From Verrucomicrobiota bacterium (GTDB lineage Bacteria; Verrucomicrobiota; Verrucomicrobiia; Limisphaerales; UBA11358): 64,000 bases of DNA. The notes below the pieces were generated by a model, which saw only the letters and a list, made by a program, of their open reading frames with translations, did not search any database and was not told the origin of the DNA. Below are positions 4,427-59,870 of the stretch, one piece after another. The stretch spans positions 8,513-72,512 of the forward strand of contig JBEKMW010000013.1 of NCBI GenBank assembly GCA_049523455.1, read 5' to 3'. A program made the translations under genes and the position numbers. Within the stretch, counting starts at the first letter, position 1. Each line of letters begins with the position of its first letter.

Positions 4427-4669
4427 TTACCTTCCGTAGATGCGCGCCCTGCGTTCGGCGGTCATGGGCGTGGCCGGGCGGGTTTGCAACAGCAATGCCT
4501 CCAATTCATCCGCGTTGCGGAAGCTCGCGCCTTCGGGGCCTTGGCCCCGGGTGACGGCATCCAGCAACGCCAGCGCCTGGTGAATGACCTCGCTTTTGTT
4601 CGAGGCGCGTCCAGCGCGGATTTGCCGCTGAATGATCGTTTCGTAGTAATCAGTGCGCGTGTAACCCAT
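4427..4669 (-). CDS. ParD/CopG-like type II antitoxin (orphan; no toxin partner seen)
   Basis: MGYTRTDYYETIIQRQIRAGRASNKSEVIHQALALLD fits the ParD pattern (helix, then G-x-Y/A-x-S-x-SEV-I/V-x-x-AL-x-LL). The ORF track opens at TTG 4693; the first ATG is at 4669. Confidence 0.5.
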   Translation of the reverse strand: MGYTRTDYYETIIQRQIRAGRASNKSEVIHQALALLDAVTRGQGPEGASFRNADELEALLLQTRPATPMTAERRARIYGR

Positions 4670-46814: not shown

Positions 46815-46848
46815 AAAGCGCGAACGGACAACCGTTCGCGCTTTTTTC
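46815..46848 (+). terminator. Rho-independent terminator after pnp
   Basis: aaagcgcgaacgg-acaa-ccgttcgcgcttt followed by a T-run. Confidence 0.85.
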
Positions 46849-50755: not shown

Positions 50756-51901
50756 TCAGGTGTTACTTCGCAATTGGAGTTCGCGTTCGGTCTTCAAGCG
50801 CAATTGGCCGCAGGCTGCGTCAATATCGCCGCCCTTTTCATGCCGCAGGGTGGCGGCGACCTTTTGTTTTTTCAGCGCGCTCTGAAACGCCTCGCAAACA
50901 TCATCCGCGGGCCGTTGCCACGGCAGGCCGGCGACCGGGTTGTAGGGAATGAGGTTCACCTTGGCGAAAAGCTTTTTAGCCAGCGTGGCGAGCGGTTTGG
51001 TCTGTTCCAGTGAGTCGTTGACACCGGCGATCAAAATGTATTCAAAGGTGATCATCCGTCCCTTCCGCCGCTGATACTCCTGGCAGGCGGCGATGAGTTC
51101 CGGGAGCGGATACTTGCGGTTGATCGGCATGATCCGGCTGCGCACGGCGTCGGTGGCGCCGTGCAGTGAAACGGCGAGGCGAAACTGAAACGGCTCGGCG
51201 GCGAGGCGGCGGATTTGCGGCGCGAGACCGCTGGTGGAAATGGTGATCTTGCGCGCGCCGATGGCGCCGCCCCAGGGCGCATTGGCGATGGCCAGGGCCT
51301 GCAACAGGTTTTCATAATTGGCCAGCGGCTCGCCCATTCCCATGATGACGAGGTTGTCAATCAGGCGCGGGGAGCCTTGGGCGGGCGGAGCGGCCGGTGC
51401 GGCGGCGGCCGGATTTTCCTCGTGCAATGCGCGTTCAGTGTTTTGCACCCGCTGCACGGCCAGCACCTGTTCCACAATTTCGTCCGGGGTGAGGTTGCGC
51501 TTCCAACCCTCAAGCCCGCTGGCGCAGAATTTGCAACCGTAAGCACAACCGACCTGGGTGGAAACGCAGAGCGTCCGCCGGTCGCTGGCGTCGCCGTAAA
51601 GGGCGGGGTTCGCGGGGATCAAGACGCTTTCGATGAGCGCGTGGTCGCGCAGCCGCCACAGGAATTTCCGGGTGGCGTCGCCGGCCCCCTGCTGGCGCAC
51701 CAATTCCAGCGTGTGCAGCGAAAAGGTTTCCGCCAGTTTTTGGCGCAAGTCCTTCGGCAGATTGGTCATGACGTCCCAACCGGTGGCGCGGCGGGCGTAA
51801 AGCCAATCCAGCAACTGCGCGGCGCGATAGGCGGGCTGTCGCCAGGCGGCGAATTGGGCTTCCAATTCGGCGCGGGTCAATGATTTTATATCCGGCAGCA
51901 C
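50756..51901 (-). CDS. rlmN: 23S rRNA/tRNA adenine-C2 methyltransferase RlmN (radical SAM)
   Basis: AYRAAQLLDWLY, CVSTQVGCAYGCKFCASG, MGMGEPLANY and RHEKGGDIDAACGQL. GTG start. Confidence 0.95.
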   Translation of the reverse strand: MLPDIKSLTRAELEAQFAAWRQPAYRAAQLLDWLYARRATGWDVMTNLPKDLRQKLAETFSLHTLELVRQQGAGDATRKFLWRLRDHALIESVLIPANPALYGDASDRRTLCVSTQVGCAYGCKFCASGLEGWKRNLTPDEIVEQVLAVQRVQNTERALHEENPAAAAPAAPPAQGSPRLIDNLVIMGMGEPLANYENLLQALAIANAPWGGAIGARKITISTSGLAPQIRRLAAEPFQFRLAVSLHGATDAVRSRIMPINRKYPLPELIAACQEYQRRKGRMITFEYILIAGVNDSLEQTKPLATLAKKLFAKVNLIPYNPVAGLPWQRPADDVCEAFQSALKKQKVAATLRHEKGGDIDAACGQLRLKTERELQLRSNT

Positions 51902-51977
51902 GCCGGCAACTTAAGCGTGGCGAACGGGAAAACCAACCCCGAAAGCTTTTCAGTCCAGCGCAAAACGCGCAAAAAGC

Positions 51978-52005
51978 TTGACCTGTGGCGCAATCCGGTT
52001 ATGAT
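51978..52005 (+). promoter_or_regulatory. Candidate sigma-70-type promoter TTGACC-N16-TATGAT
   Basis: Hexamers read at 51978-51983 and 52000-52005, upstream of the leader ORF and DAHP synthase. Confidence 0.4.
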
Positions 52006-52011
52006 GCGGGC

Positions 52012-52154
52012 GTGAACAAGAGCAGTTGGCAATTTACCGGCAACGCTGCCGCGTGGTTTTACTTTACCACGGCGGCGGACGGGTATTTGTCGCTGCGCTG
52101 AATCGCAACCACAACCAACACCATCCGCCGCAGGTCGCCACCTGCGGTTTTTTT
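52012..52154 (+). promoter_or_regulatory. Candidate aromatic-amino-acid leader peptide plus transcription attenuator upstream of DAHP synthase
   Basis: A 29-codon ORF (GTG 52012 to TGA 52101) encodes VNKSSWQFTGNAAAWFYFTTAADGYLSLR. Alternative hairpins are present. The terminator ccgcaggt-cgcc-acctgcgg plus T7 lies at 52128-52154, 33 nt before the aro gene ATG. Confidence 0.5.
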
Positions 52155-52186
52155 GTGGAGACCTCCGGCCAACTTGAAAGGCAAAC

Positions 52187-53206
52187 ATGATCATCGTCCT
52201 CAAACCCGGCATCTCAAAGCAGCAGGAGTCTTCCGTGCTCGCCGAAATCCGCAAGCGCGGCTACCGTCCGCACGTGATGCGCGGCGTGGCCCGCATCGTC
52301 ATCGGCGCCATCGGCGACGAATTAACCCACGCCAGCCTCGAAACGCTCGTCACGGAATTCCCGGCCGCCGTCGAAAGCGTCATGCCCGTGCAGAAACGCT
52401 ACAAGCTTGTCAGCCGCGAGGCGCATCCGGTCAGTTCCACCGTCACCATTCGCGGCCATGTCATTGGCGGAAAAAAACTCCAGGTGATGGCCGGGCCGTG
52501 TTCCGTCGAAAGCGAAAAACAGTTGCTCACCACCGCCGTGGCCGTGAAGGCGGCGGGCGCCACGATCTTGCGCGGCGGCGCATTCAAGCCGCGCACCTCG
52601 CCGTATGAATTCCAGGGCCTCGGGGAGAAGGGATTGAAGCTGCTGGCCAAGGCGCGGCGCGAAACCGGCCTGGCCGTGATCACCGAGCTGCTTTCCGAAA
52701 ACCACACCGACCTCGTCGCTGAATACACTGACATCATCCAGATCGGCGCGCGTAACGCGCAGAACTTCCAGTTGCTCAGCGCCGCCGCGAAAACCGGCAA
52801 GCCCGTCCTGCTCAAGCGCGGGCTGTCCATGAAGATTGAGGAATGGCTGCTCGCCGGCGAGTACATCCTGGCCAATGAAAACCCCAACCTGATGTTCTGT
52901 GAGCGCGGCATCCGCACTTTCGAGACTTACACGCGCAACACGCTCGACCTCTCGGCCATTCCGATCATCAAGAAGGAGTCGCACTGTCCGATAGTGATTG
53001 ATCCCAGCCAGGGCGCCGGCCGGGCCGATCTCGTGGCCGCCATGTGCAAGGGCGCGGTGGCGATGGGCGCTGACGCGCTGCTCATCGAGGTGCATCCCAA
53101 TCCGGCGGAGGCGTGGAGCGATGGCGCGCAGCAGGTTTCGCTCGAACTGTTCGCGAAGCTGATGGACGAACTGCGCCCGTTCATCCAGGCGGCCGGCCGG
53201 GAATGA
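52187..53206 (+). CDS. 3-deoxy-7-phosphoheptulonate (DAHP) synthase, type I-beta with an N-terminal ferredoxin-like regulatory domain
   Basis: 339 aa: MIIVLKPGISKQQ... (regulatory domain), then MAGPCSVESEKQLL...ILRGGAFKPRTSPYEFQGLG...DIIQIGARNAQNF...IDPSQGAGR. Confidence 0.9.
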   Translation: MIIVLKPGISKQQESSVLAEIRKRGYRPHVMRGVARIVIGAIGDELTHASLETLVTEFPAAVESVMPVQKRYKLVSREAHPVSSTVTIRGHVIGGKKLQVMAGPCSVESEKQLLTTAVAVKAAGATILRGGAFKPRTSPYEFQGLGEKGLKLLAKARRETGLAVITELLSENHTDLVAEYTDIIQIGARNAQNFQLLSAAAKTGKPVLLKRGLSMKIEEWLLAGEYILANENPNLMFCERGIRTFETYTRNTLDLSAIPIIKKESHCPIVIDPSQGAGRADLVAAMCKGAVAMGADALLIEVHPNPAEAWSDGAQQVSLELFAKLMDELRPFIQAAGRE

Positions 53207-54259
53207 AGAACGATGCCGGAGGACAGGTTCCTGGTCCGTTACGGCGTCGTGGAATTTGAGGATGTCGCCTTTTTCGCCCTTGAGTTCGGCTTCCTTGAAC
53301 TTGATGGCGGCGCGGGGGTGTTGGTTCAACATGCCGGTGAGCAGATAGGGCAGGTCGTAGCCCCATAGCAGTTTGGCGCGCATGGGTTCGACGTGATTTT
53401 GCACGCAGTCGAGCACGGGACGCAGTTTGTACTTGGGGTTGTGGAGGAATCCCAGCAGCAGTTCCATGGGACAGTTGCCGGCGCCGCGGCCCAAGCCGGC
53501 CATGGTGGCGTCGAGAAAATTGGCGCCCAGGATGATGCCTTCGATGGTGTTGGCGAAGGCGAGTTGCATGTTGTTGTGCATGTGCACGCCCACTTCCTTG
53601 CCCGAGGCCTTGCAGAAGTGCTGGTATTTTTTCACCAGGTATTGCACCCGCTCGCTGTAAAGGGCGCCGAAGCTGTCCACCACGTAGATGACCTTGGCTT
53701 CGGATTGGGCGAGCATCGCCAGGCCTTCGTCCAGCTCACGGTCCGGCACGGCGGAGGCCGCCATGAGATTCACCGTGGTTTCGTAGCCCTTGTCGTGCGC
53801 GTCTTTCACCATGTCCAGCGCGGTGGGAATCTGGCTGATATAGGTGGCCACGCGGATCAGGTCCAACACGCTGTCTTTTTTCTGCAAGATGTCTTCGTGG
53901 TAATCGCACCGGTCGGCGTCGGCCATGACGCTGAGCTTGAGGCTGGTGGGATTGTCGCCCACGATGCGGCGGATGTCCTCCTCGAGGCAGTATTTCCAAC
54001 AGCCGTGTTCGCCGGCCTTGATGCCTTTGCGCGACGCCTTGTAACCGAGTTCCATGTAATCCACGCCCGCGGCCACACACGTGTCATAGACGGTCTTGAC
54101 GAGTTGGTCGTCGAACTGGTGGTTATTCATCAAGCCGCCGTCGCGGATGGTGCAGTCGAGCACCTTGATTTCGGGGCGGTAGGATAGCCAGCGGCTGGTG
54201 GCGGTATTCTTCGGCGCGCGGCTGGGAGCGGCCGGCTCGTTAGGCTTCGTTGCTTTCAT
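52322..54259 (-). CDS. HMGL-like (DmpG / pyruvate carboxyltransferase-type) aldolase; recognisable domain ends near 53230 but the first in-frame stop is at 52322
   Basis: From ATG 54259: MKATKPNE...KVLDCTIRDGGLMNNHQF...GVDYMELGY...VGVHMHNNMQLAFANTIEGIILGANFLDATMAGLGRGAGNCPMELLLGFL. Beyond ...KFHDAVTDQE the translation looks like antisense noise of the DAHP synthase gene. Confidence 0.6.
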   Translation of the reverse strand: MKATKPNEPAAPSRAPKNTATSRWLSYRPEIKVLDCTIRDGGLMNNHQFDDQLVKTVYDTCVAAGVDYMELGYKASRKGIKAGEHGCWKYCLEEDIRRIVGDNPTSLKLSVMADADRCDYHEDILQKKDSVLDLIRVATYISQIPTALDMVKDAHDKGYETTVNLMAASAVPDRELDEGLAMLAQSEAKVIYVVDSFGALYSERVQYLVKKYQHFCKASGKEVGVHMHNNMQLAFANTIEGIILGANFLDATMAGLGRGAGNCPMELLLGFLHNPKYKLRPVLDCVQNHVEPMRAKLLWGYDLPYLLTGMLNQHPRAAIKFKEAELKGEKGDILKFHDAVTDQEPVLRHRSSFPAGRLDERAQFVHQLREQFERNLLRAIAPRLRRIGMHLDEQRVSAHRHRALAHGGHEIGPAGALAGINHYRTVRLLLDDRNGREVERVARVSLESADAALTEHQVGVFIGQDVLAGEQPFLNLHGQPALEQDGLAGFRGGAEQLEVLRVTRADLDDVSVFSDEVGVVFGKQLGDHGQAGFAPRLGQQLQSLLPEALEFIRRGARLECAAAQDRGARRLHGHGGGEQLFFAFDGTRPGHHLEFFSANDMAANGDGGTDRMRLAADKLVAFLHGHDAFDGGREFRDERFEAGVG

Positions 54260-58532: not shown

Positions 58533-59870
58533 ATGAAGCCGGCGAATCACCATTTTGCTGCCGAACGGCGGGAAACGGCCGCGAAACCCAATCAACCGAC
58601 CCTGCAGTTTTCCATCGCAACCTGCTGGGACGATGCGCTGTTGGACGGTTTGGTCGCACTCCAGCGCGAACACCCGCGCGCCCGCTTTGTCGAGGTCTAT
58701 GGCGCGCATCGAACGAACATCACCGGGCATGGACGTCCGGCGTATCGGCTGCCGGAGGTCAGCGCGGAGGTTTTCGAGCGGCACGTGCGGCGCGCGCGGG
58801 AACTGGGCCTGCGCTTCAACTATATCATGAACGCCCCCGACTTCGGCGGACGCGAAACCAGCGTGGAATGGCTGGGCGAAGTCTCCCGCTGGCTGAAATA
58901 CCTCGCGCAGTGCGGCGTCAGCGGCGTCACCATTTCGCACCCGGACCTTTTGCGGTTTGTCAAACGGGAGTTCCCGGATTTCCGGCTCAATGTATCGGTC
59001 ATCACGGGCGTGGACACGGTGGCCGAAGCGCGGCGGTTCGAGGACATCGGGGCGGACGTCATCAACCTTAATCCCTTTACCATCAACCGGGATTTCGATT
59101 CGCTGCGGGCCATCCGCCAGGCCATGGATTGTGAGCTCGAACTCTACGCGAACATTCCCTGTCTCGATCGCTGCCCGCGCCGCGATGCCCACTACCGCTA
59201 CTCCGGCCGCGCCTCCCAAGCTGCGGGCGGACAGGGTGAGGGTATTAACTCGGATGGGAGGGGAGACTTTCCCTCGCCCGCGGGAGCGGGAGAGGGTGGC
59301 GCGATAGCGCCGGGTGAGGGTTGTAGGGAAAGCACAAACTCCTACGGTCAGGGTGAGGTGAGGGTCCGTCGAGAAGGCCTGGCACCCGGCGTCGCCGTGA
59401 CCGAAGACCCGTTCCTGATGCATTGTTCGCACACGTTCTTGTCCAATCCGGTCGAATTCCTCCGCAGTCCGTTCATCCGCCCGGAGGACGTGCCCGCGTA
59501 CCGCCAAATAGGAATGGATTTCATCAAACTTTCCGACCGGACCGAGGGGACCGCCTTTCTTTTGCAAACCGCCAAAGCCTACGCCGCGGGACACTACGAC
59601 GGCAACCTCTTCGACCTGATTTTCCGGAGCGGCCGAAAAATCCGGGCGGGACTGGGCTGGGTCCAGCCCGGAGCGCCGGCGCAGCCCATCCCGGTCATCA
59701 TCCGGAATTCGGTGCTGACGGAATTGAAATTCATCGAACAGATCAAAACGCTCCGCGGCGCCAAGCGGGCGGAATTTTATACGAAGGCGGCGGCGCGCGC
59801 GGTGTCATTGACGAATCCCCAAGCCGTCGAAGAGTGGCTCAGTGTGCTTCAGGCGCGCATCGCCGCGTGA
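58533..59870 (+). CDS. Peptidase U32-family-like protein, interrupted in frame by a REP-type element
   Basis: 445 aa. The TIM-barrel-like N-terminal part (FVEVYGAH...LGLRFNYIMNAP...GVSGVTISHPDLLRFVKREFPDFRLNVSVITGV...GADVINLNP...ELELYANIPCLDRCPRRDAHY) is consistent with U32 architecture. Family assignment is from memory. Confidence 0.55.
   Translation: MKPANHHFAAERRETAAKPNQPTLQFSIATCWDDALLDGLVALQREHPRARFVEVYGAHRTNITGHGRPAYRLPEVSAEVFERHVRRARELGLRFNYIMNAPDFGGRETSVEWLGEVSRWLKYLAQCGVSGVTISHPDLLRFVKREFPDFRLNVSVITGVDTVAEARRFEDIGADVINLNPFTINRDFDSLRAIRQAMDCELELYANIPCLDRCPRRDAHYRYSGRASQAAGGQGEGINSDGRGDFPSPAGAGEGGAIAPGEGCRESTNSYGQGEVRVRREGLAPGVAVTEDPFLMHCSHTFLSNPVEFLRSPFIRPEDVPAYRQIGMDFIKLSDRTEGTAFLLQTAKAYAAGHYDGNLFDLIFRSGRKIRAGLGWVQPGAPAQPIPVIIRNSVLTELKFIEQIKTLRGAKRAEFYTKAAARAVSLTNPQAVEEWLSVLQARIAA
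59231..59365. repeat. REP-type element inside the U32-like ORF (near-identical to 57881-58050)
   Basis: gatgggaggggagactttccctcgcccgcgggagcgggagagggtggcgcgatagcgccgggtgagggttgtagggaaagcacaa... It translates in frame as SDGRGDFPSPAGAGEGGAIAPGEGCRESTNSYGQGEVRV. Confidence 0.9.

Follow-up and report, generated by a model that had tools for sequence, protein, structure and literature searches.

The DNA directly upstream of the gene for 3-deoxy-D-arabino-heptulosonate 7-phosphate (DAHP) synthase in a Verrucomicrobiota bacterium (contig JBEKMW010000013.1) very probably carries a ribosome-mediated transcription attenuator, in which translation of a short leader peptide with a cluster of aromatic residues controls the gene that follows. 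The evidence is computational and comes from a 64-kb stretch of this contig, called the window here and used for all coordinates unless another locus is named, together with the corresponding region of 80 related loci. An initial annotation of the window had interpreted the region as an attenuator of the trpL/pheL type, and this interpretation is supported by the conservation of the leader in 72 of 81 loci, by signatures of coding in its small open reading frame (ORF) and by the alternative pairings available to its RNA. From the same anatomy we infer where transcription starts, that the leader is translated leaderless, that translation is coupled to transcription and that the system responds to amino acids.

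The leader region and its relatives

All elements of the leader lie on the plus strand. A promoter with a -35 hexamer TTGACC (51978-51983) and a -10 hexamer TATGAT (52000-52005) matches the consensus at 10 of 12 positions across a 16-nt spacer. Three promoter-like sites occur in 3 kb, where shuffled sequences lead one to expect 0.5, and this one is the best of them. Its -10 box ends 6 nt before a GTG codon, which puts the predicted transcription start at or beside the start codon of the leader ORF (VNKSSWQFTGNAAAWFYFTTAADGYLSLR; 52012-52101). This ORF has 29 codons, ends with TGA at 52099-52101, and contains the putative regulatory codons TGG TTT TAC TTT (Trp-Phe-Tyr-Phe) at 52054-52065. It is followed by a G-poor, A/C-rich, unstructured spacer (52102-52120) and by an intrinsic terminator, GCCGCAGGU-CGCC-ACCUGCGGU (52127-52154), in which a 9-bp GC-rich stem (52127-52148) runs into seven U (52148-52154). 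The last T of this run sits 32 nt before the ATG of the DAHP synthase gene at 52187. Promoter, ORF and terminator are thus present as they had been described in the initial annotation. So is the regulated gene (52187-53206, plus strand): its product is a type I-beta DAHP synthase that scores above the cutoffs of NF006421 (457 bits, cutoff 335) and TIGR01361 (369 bits, cutoff 268), with a full-length match that includes the N-terminal extension. The 151-nt leader including the terminator folds better than its shuffles (z -4.2), as does the ORF alone (z -3.4).

To place the leader in its family, one genome per species was searched with the DAHP synthase protein and 80 loci were taken from more than 562 relatives, with amino-acid identities of 82-88%. 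Nearly all of them are Verrucomicrobiota (labels Limisphaerales, Pedosphaera, Verrucomicrobiia). Counts out of 81 below refer to these loci plus the window, counts out of 66 to the aligned leaders, and counts out of 13 to the subfamily of the window. The same layout is found in 72 of the 81 loci: TTGAC-N16-TAnnnT, 6-7 nt, GTG or ATG, the ORF, a G-poor spacer, GCCGCAGG-loop-CCUGCGGC with a U-run, and DAHP synthase, with about 30-45 nt between terminator and ATG. The DAHP synthase is of the Verrucomicrobiota type in all 72. The initial annotation had pointed to the fate of the ORF and its aromatic codons in relatives as a decisive observation; these 72 loci keep the ORF and the cluster, most of them with the terminator, and TTGAC stands 16 nt before the -10 box in 69 of them. 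A leader profile (nhmmer) detects a single copy per locus, in every case immediately before DAHP synthase, and no further copy in the window or the 80 loci. A pattern scan of metagenomes for TTGCGGCTGCG-N22-50-GCCGCAGG yielded at least three true leaders among the 120 loci listed, each with DAHP synthase directly downstream (in L090 as the first 56 residues, after which the alignment stops). The other pattern matches are mostly chance occurrences in other GC-rich organisms, and the scan is a weak test of exclusive linkage. Among the fetched records, ten (L001, L013, L019, L020, L022, L033, L042, L054, L064 and L072) are titled variously Bifidobacterium, Bifidobacteriaceae, Candidatus Binatia or Candidatus Acidoferrum; on loci of Verrucomicrobiota type, these labels of metagenome-assembled genomes are probably wrong.

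Several independent signatures argue that the leader ORF is coding. Across the 72 loci, the start codon is GTG in 60 cases and ATG in 12, the two replacing each other in the same place after the -10 box, and all three stop codons are used (TAA 34, TAG 23, TGA 15). The peptides are distinct in 71 of 72 cases, yet each of these ORFs remains open. The ORFs have 24 to 32 codons (one has 18), and their lengths differ by multiples of three: a conserved (C/T)TGCGG near the end of the ORF lies at a distance of 100, 103, 106, 109, 112 or 115 from the -35 box, and loci with a promoter spacing of 7 form a second series that is offset by one. In the non-coding spacer that follows (C/T)TGCGG, 33-39 nt long, there is no 3-nt periodicity. 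Aromatic residues make up 24.6% of the translation in frame, versus 6.6% and 8.1% in the other two frames. Phe, Trp and Tyr occur together in the densest 8-residue window of 61 of the 72 peptides, and 31 peptides contain unbroken aromatic runs of 6-7 residues. Substitutions preserve this character. At the positions of the window's W-F-Y-F the 13-member subfamily uses TGG, TTT or TAT, TAC, TAT or TGG, and TTT, never a non-aromatic codon, and the replacements include Phe to Tyr as well as Tyr to Trp, for which TAC to TGG takes a two-nucleotide change. An N-terminal VNS is also conserved, and the peptide varies freely outside the aromatic cluster and the C-terminus.

These coding signatures bear on a reading in which the ORF is incidental and the RNA itself is the sensor, as in a translation-independent riboswitch, T-box or TRAP-like switch whose ligand would be a metabolite, a tRNA or a protein. 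In favour of this reading are the strong structure of the leader and the unusual invariance of its terminator and antiterminator, which could be a binding site. Against this stand, besides the evidence for coding, the nucleotides of the leader hairpin, which differ widely between subfamilies while the peptide pattern stays. Rfam likewise offered no family at gathering score anywhere in the window, and for 51800-52300 even permissive searching, with E up to 10, gave nothing beyond chance level (matches at E 1.2-9.6). We therefore consider a translation-independent switch highly unlikely.

The setting of the leader speaks to another alternative. The upstream neighbour, the RlmN gene, lies on the opposite strand and is divergent, which leaves no upstream gene that the terminator could end, and that possibility was rejected. 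The gene 3' of DAHP synthase (53213-54259, minus strand) is convergent, and DAHP synthase is therefore monocistronic. As a complete unit of promoter, ORF and terminator, the leader might instead be an independent small gene for a 29-residue aromatic-rich peptide or an RNA of about 140 nt, with DAHP synthase transcribed from a promoter of its own; in Sinorhizobium, the attenuator-derived rnTrpL and peTrpL reportedly act in trans as RNA and peptide. We judge independence from DAHP synthase to be exceedingly unlikely. The T-run ends just 32 nt from the ATG, and the promoter search over 3 kb found no promoter-like site between the two. In the window and the fetched loci, the unit occurs in this one place, immediately before DAHP synthase, and in no other. 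Its aromatic codons fit the product of the pathway, and the conserved geometry of the antiterminator would be purposeless. A role in trans of the leader RNA or peptide may exist alongside attenuation.

The start of the leader ORF has a property of its own. The initial annotation had noted as a caveat that the GTG has no obvious Shine-Dalgarno sequence and coincides with the predicted transcription start, and this proves to be a family trait: the end of the -10 box lies 6 nt from the start codon in 49 of 72 loci and 7 nt in 17 (66 together). These few nucleotides vary among loci and are too short to hold a Shine-Dalgarno sequence. Because the spacing is conserved, the leader mRNA appears to be leaderless and translated from a GUG at its 5' end. 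Elsewhere in the window, two ORFs also start, each with an ATG, 5-8 nt after a match to a TTGAC-N16-18-TAnnnT promoter: a 445-codon ORF without NCBIfam match (58533-59870, plus strand) and an 80-codon ORF for a ParD-like antitoxin (4427-4669, minus strand). They are candidate leaderless mRNAs, and leaderless translation may be common in this organism.

Alternative pairings and ribosome position

The terminator is nearly invariant across the family. It forms in the full-length minimum free energy (MFE) structure of 62 of the 66 leaders, and a strict search for hairpins followed by T-runs finds only six terminators of such quality in the window. Its arms GCCGCAGG and CCUGCGGC (alignment columns 145-178) are identical in 64-66 of the 66 species, while the peptides are nearly all different. 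Such strict identity is unusual for a stem and may reflect a triple constraint, as terminator, antiterminator and coding sequence, or possibly an unknown binding partner. The spacer in front of it is composed, across the family, of 44% A, 31% C, 8% G and 17% T; the ORF, by contrast, has 30% G. This composition fits an unstructured linker that would become the loop of the antiterminator. Two other strong intrinsic terminators were seen in the window, one directly after the PNPase gene (46815-46844, plus strand) and one about 100 nt after an Hsp20 gene (55497-55469, minus strand). The latter lies 35 nt upstream of an ORF for a DegT-type aminotransferase and was considered as a second attenuator; it was rejected as the ordinary terminator of the Hsp20 gene.

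The leader RNA of the window can be divided into four regions with the classical alternatives. Region 1 (52044-52057) holds the Trp codon and is the 5' strand of the predicted anti-antiterminator. Region 2 (52066-52082; ACC..GCGGCGGA..GG) is the antiterminator strand and can pair either with region 1 or with region 3. Region 3 (52121-52135) includes the 5' arm of the terminator (52127-52135), and region 4 (52140-52148) is the 3' arm. In the MFE structure, 52044-52050 pair with 52071-52077 and 52053-52057 with 52066-52070, giving a hairpin around the aromatic codons, formed by 52044-52057 and 52066-52077, with 12 bp, a 2-nt bulge and the loop UUUACUUU. The hairpin proposed earlier is thus real, and larger than the 9 bp first described. 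Beneath it, 52022-52032 pair with 52087-52096 in a basal helix that has weak covariation support.

The antiterminator is the duplex of 52066-52082 with 52121-52135 (-22.6 kcal/mol, z -3.9). Its core, 52072-52079 with 52124-52131, had been placed exactly by the initial annotation, which credited it with an overlap of only 4 nt with the terminator stem. Small internal loops extend the core by ACC 52066-52068 with GGU 52133-52135 and by GG 52081-52082 with CC 52121-52122, so that the duplex reaches 8 of the 9 nucleotides of the terminator 5' arm; a fold of the nascent RNA pairs 7 of the 9.

Pairing of this kind is possible in every member examined, and in most relatives it spans the whole 5' arm. 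Between the post-aromatic segment of the ORF and the 5' arm, duplex energy averages -17.6 kcal/mol, versus -8.6 for a control of equal length taken from the start of the ORF, and z is below -2 against shuffles in 44 of the 66 leaders. Three sequence solutions produce the pairing. The main group has the distal type, a pairing of CUUGCGGC with GCCGCAGG, whose strand in the ORF begins 15-18 nt downstream of the last aromatic codon and ends 5 nt short of the stop codon. In the proximal type, directly after the cluster, GCGGCGGA pairs with UC(C/U)GCCGC; it is found in the window and about 12 relatives, most of which also keep the distal one. The third type, ACCUGCG...GGGC, occurs in L053, L066, L074 and L075. 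The opposing structure is also widespread: the 5' half of the ORF captures the antiterminator strand in 59 of 66 full-length MFE structures, and folding of the ORF alone beats dinucleotide shuffles (mean z -2.6).

Consensus folding of the 66-sequence alignment with RNAalifold recovered the terminator alone. The ORF aligns by codons rather than by structure, and the pairing registers differ between subfamilies; folding sequence by sequence, duplex energies and an alignment of the subfamily were therefore used in its place. In the 66-sequence alignment, 95% of the cells of the distal helix are paired, versus 27-56% in shifted registers. The proximal helix reaches 94% in the 13-member alignment, versus 28-53% when shifted. 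In a check of covariation, of the kind suggested by the initial annotation, two pairs of the proximal helix change on both sides, with a score reached by 1 of 500 shuffles. At 52077:52126, the subfamily has G-C in 6 members, G-U in 4 and A-U in 3, without a mismatch. The apical stem of the hairpin between regions 1 and 2 is also conserved in the subfamily.

The effect of ribosome position was simulated by hiding the RNA to 12 nt past the A-site codon and folding the emerged part before the 3' arm of the terminator is made. A stall at the first aromatic codon left at least 60% of the 5' arm sequestered in 65 of the 66 leaders, one at the middle codon in 58 and one at the last in 56, compared with 2 of 66 for a ribosome at the stop codon. 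In the window, the antiterminator formed on a stall at the Trp codon has -27.8 kcal/mol and takes up 7 of the 9 nucleotides of the arm, and a stall at the first Phe codon held 5 of 9; both are clearly productive in the simulation.

These results suggest the following switch. Transcription would begin at or beside the GTG at 52012, and the 29-codon leader would be translated leaderless while RNA polymerase proceeds. When aromatic amino acids are plentiful, the ribosome would pass Trp-Phe-Tyr-Phe (52054-52065) and reach the stop codon. Region 1 would then recapture region 2 or, in most relatives, the terminating ribosome would mask region 2. With region 2 unavailable, the terminator (52127-52148) and its U7 would form and transcription would end about 32 nt before the ATG. 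When charged tRNA-Trp, tRNA-Phe or tRNA-Tyr is short, the ribosome would stall on the aromatic codons and cover region 1. Region 2, now free, would pair with the emerging 52121-52135 and remove the base of the terminator stem, letting polymerase enter the DAHP synthase gene. In the window, this on state would correspond to a ribosome waiting at the Trp or a Phe codon, and probably also at the Tyr codon. Without any translation, the RNA would form one long leader hairpin (1:2) and the terminator (3:4), so that the default would be off. Since the cluster carries codons for all three aromatic amino acids, it would act as an OR gate, in which shortage of any one of them opens the common pathway.

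The end of the peptide raises a last alternative. Of the 72 peptides, 39 have LRLR as their last residues, and R-L-R is known as a '+X+' motif at which ribosomes stall in a drug-dependent manner (PMC8632094). Together with the conserved VNS, this could point to a sensor based on nascent-peptide arrest, TnaC-like or of the '+X+' kind, in which LRLR-stop or the aromatic run stalls the ribosome, possibly with free aromatic amino acids; we find its chances remote, as the LRLR codons are the antiterminator strand CUUGCGGCUGCG that pairs with the invariant terminator arm, a constraint on the RNA that suffices to explain them, the window's own peptide ends in LSLR (52087-52101), residues outside the cluster and the C-terminus vary freely, and termination is what stalling at the stop codon would promote, equally consistent with the classical model. 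There is a slim chance that (H/C)LRLR-stop, perhaps with the aromatic run, is an arrest element that adds a peptide-level input to a three-amino-acid attenuator. It would be a long shot as well that such an element keeps a ribosome that has reached the stop codon on the antiterminator, or that it responds to free aromatic amino acids as TnaC does. Because one stretch of nucleotides serves both as code for the tail and as antiterminator, selection on the peptide and selection on the RNA are inseparable by sequence.

Observations at odds with attenuation

A number of observations weigh against control of DAHP synthase by a leader-peptide attenuator, or against parts of this model. Some concern the pairings. 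The family-wide distal antiterminator shows conservation and one-sided changes, without double-sided covariation; its partner, the terminator arm, is invariant, which accounts for changes on one side only. Covariation in the hairpin between regions 1 and 2 is weak: taking the structure of the window across the 13-member subfamily, 71% of cells are paired and the score is reached by 32 of 500 shuffles. When the 5' and 3' halves of the ORF are paired with each other, true partners reach -27.0 kcal/mol versus -22.2 for partners from different leaders, and 25% of unrelated partners equal the true one. The window has a degenerate distal antiterminator, with UUUGUCGC at 52087-52096, the 3' strand of the basal helix, in place of the family's CUUGCGGC, which leaves one C.C mismatch, and the proximal antiterminator begins 1 nt after the last Phe codon.

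This arrangement has consequences in the ribosome simulation. A stall at the Tyr codon of the window is borderline (4 of 9 arm nucleotides, -23.2 kcal/mol), and a ribosome stalled at the last Phe codon covers half of the proximal antiterminator, so that 3 of 9 arm nucleotides are sequestered. Once the 3' arm is present, the MFE structure at equilibrium retains a shortened 6-bp terminator beside the antiterminator core, and the decision must therefore be kinetic. The shortened hairpin no longer reaches the U-run. Intrinsic terminators require the stem base beside the U-tract for release, and loss of these pairs should therefore weaken termination. At the other end of the leader, initiation at a leaderless GUG in Verrucomicrobiota is a step that we infer from promoter spacing.

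Finally, the family has exceptions. Nine of the 81 loci have no usable leader: it is absent altogether from L030, L061, L063, L068, L070 and L076, the contigs of L003 and L005 end inside it, and in L055 the ORF contains no aromatic run. L059 and L077, which belong to the 72, lack any intrinsic terminator.

Both L059 (2071-2210, MIWCLARFSSFAAWFYYW...) and L077 (381-493, MIRCFARFSSFAGWFYY...) keep the aromatic ORF and the leader hairpin, and the switch may here work at the level of translation or differ in some other way. The terminator of L071 is reduced to a hairpin with a weak, interrupted T-run. L006 (2820-2972) keeps the GCCGCAGG box and has a different hairpin, GCCCCGAA-AACC-TTCGGGGC, before the U-run; here the terminator appears to have been replaced while the target of the antiterminator stayed. 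L055 combines the promoter of the family with a 29-codon ORF and a terminator of the GCCGCAGG type (2838-2969, between about 163 and 32 nt from its DAHP synthase ATG), and the peptide, VKSHAAKMIWLSHVSLARAAVGTADSVRF, has no aromatic run. This could be either a decayed leader or a leader with a different input.

Relation to known leader-peptide systems

The leader shares with trpL and pheL of E. coli the logic of four regions, with regulatory codons in or beside region 1, a predicted hairpin of regions 1 and 2, an antiterminator of regions 2 and 3, and a terminator of regions 3 and 4 that ends in a U-run. In the window, about 18 nt separate the Trp codon from the core of region 2, and the corresponding distance in trpL is close to this. 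The differences are several. Covariance models give no match to the Rfam families Trp_leader and Phe_leader. The Verrucomicrobiota leader controls the common first step of the pathway rather than a terminal branch, and does so with a cluster for three amino acids. It has no Shine-Dalgarno sequence and its start codon stands at the predicted transcription start, and the antiterminator strand lies within the last four codons in most of the Verrucomicrobiota leaders. Input from several amino acids has its own precedents in the ilvGMEDA (Leu, Val, Ile) and thr (Thr, Ile) leaders of E. coli, which integrate shortage of several amino acids that share a pathway; the amino acids, the sequence and the phylum differ from those described here.

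Attenuation in front of DAHP synthase is known from Corynebacterium glutamicum, in the aroR-aroF system (Neshat et al. 2014, as summarized in PMC11802643 and PMC7356990). The aromatic leader peptide is common to both systems, and the W-F-Y-F of the window contains the F-Y-F of aroR. The resemblance is one of function, between a system of Actinomycetota and one of Verrucomicrobiota. In Verrucomicrobiota, Trp codons are almost always part of the cluster as well, which is longer and reaches seven consecutive aromatic residues, and the enzyme is of the type I-beta form (TIGR01361). The aroR leader (Phe-Tyr-Phe) is reported to lie upstream of aroF, and stalling at its aromatic codons to raise transcription (PMC11802643, PMC7356990); only limitation of Phe was effective, as summarized in a review.

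Two further systems can be compared by description. In Acholeplasma, uORFC-13-1 is a predicted upstream ORF (uORF) found exclusively before aroF and adjoining an intrinsic terminator, whose Phe codons are proposed to set the terminator (PMC8632094). It has a ribosome-binding site and a U-run that itself encodes at least one Phe, and is confined to Acholeplasma and environmental sequences. Leaderless polycysteine uORFs of mycobacteria (bioRxiv 10.1101/834739) begin with AUG or GUG at the 5' end of the mRNA and sense the supply of cysteine through their own translation. Their input is thus cysteine, and the Verrucomicrobiota leader is predicted to be leaderless from its promoter spacing.

Our literature search found nothing on leader-peptide attenuators in Verrucomicrobiota. 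The initial annotation had supposed the arrangement to be undescribed for this kind of organism, which agrees with that search, but leader control of DAHP synthase as such is known in C. glutamicum and predicted in Acholeplasma. The leader is most likely a new, well-conserved family of Verrucomicrobiota that is absent from Rfam and set apart from aroR and uORFC-13-1 by their descriptions. There are precedents for the principle and even for the target gene, which makes its novelty modest.

A survey from 2010 could list leader-peptide systems only in Proteobacteria and Actinobacteria, in addition to its own case in Firmicutes. The family described here extends this phylogenetic range to Verrucomicrobiota, and its conserved element provides a handle on gene regulation in a phylum with almost no characterised cis-regulatory RNAs. 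At about 145 nt, the leader is suited to annotation as an RNA and as a small ORF, the 24-32 codons of which are probably missed by gene callers. If the spacing between promoter and GTG marks the real start, these bacteria would initiate at leaderless GUG codons, with tight coupling between transcription and translation. E. coli employs the TyrR and TrpR repressors on separate DAHP synthase genes; unlike these repressors, a single attenuator with codons for Trp, Phe and Tyr may gate the entry into the shikimate pathway in these Verrucomicrobiota.

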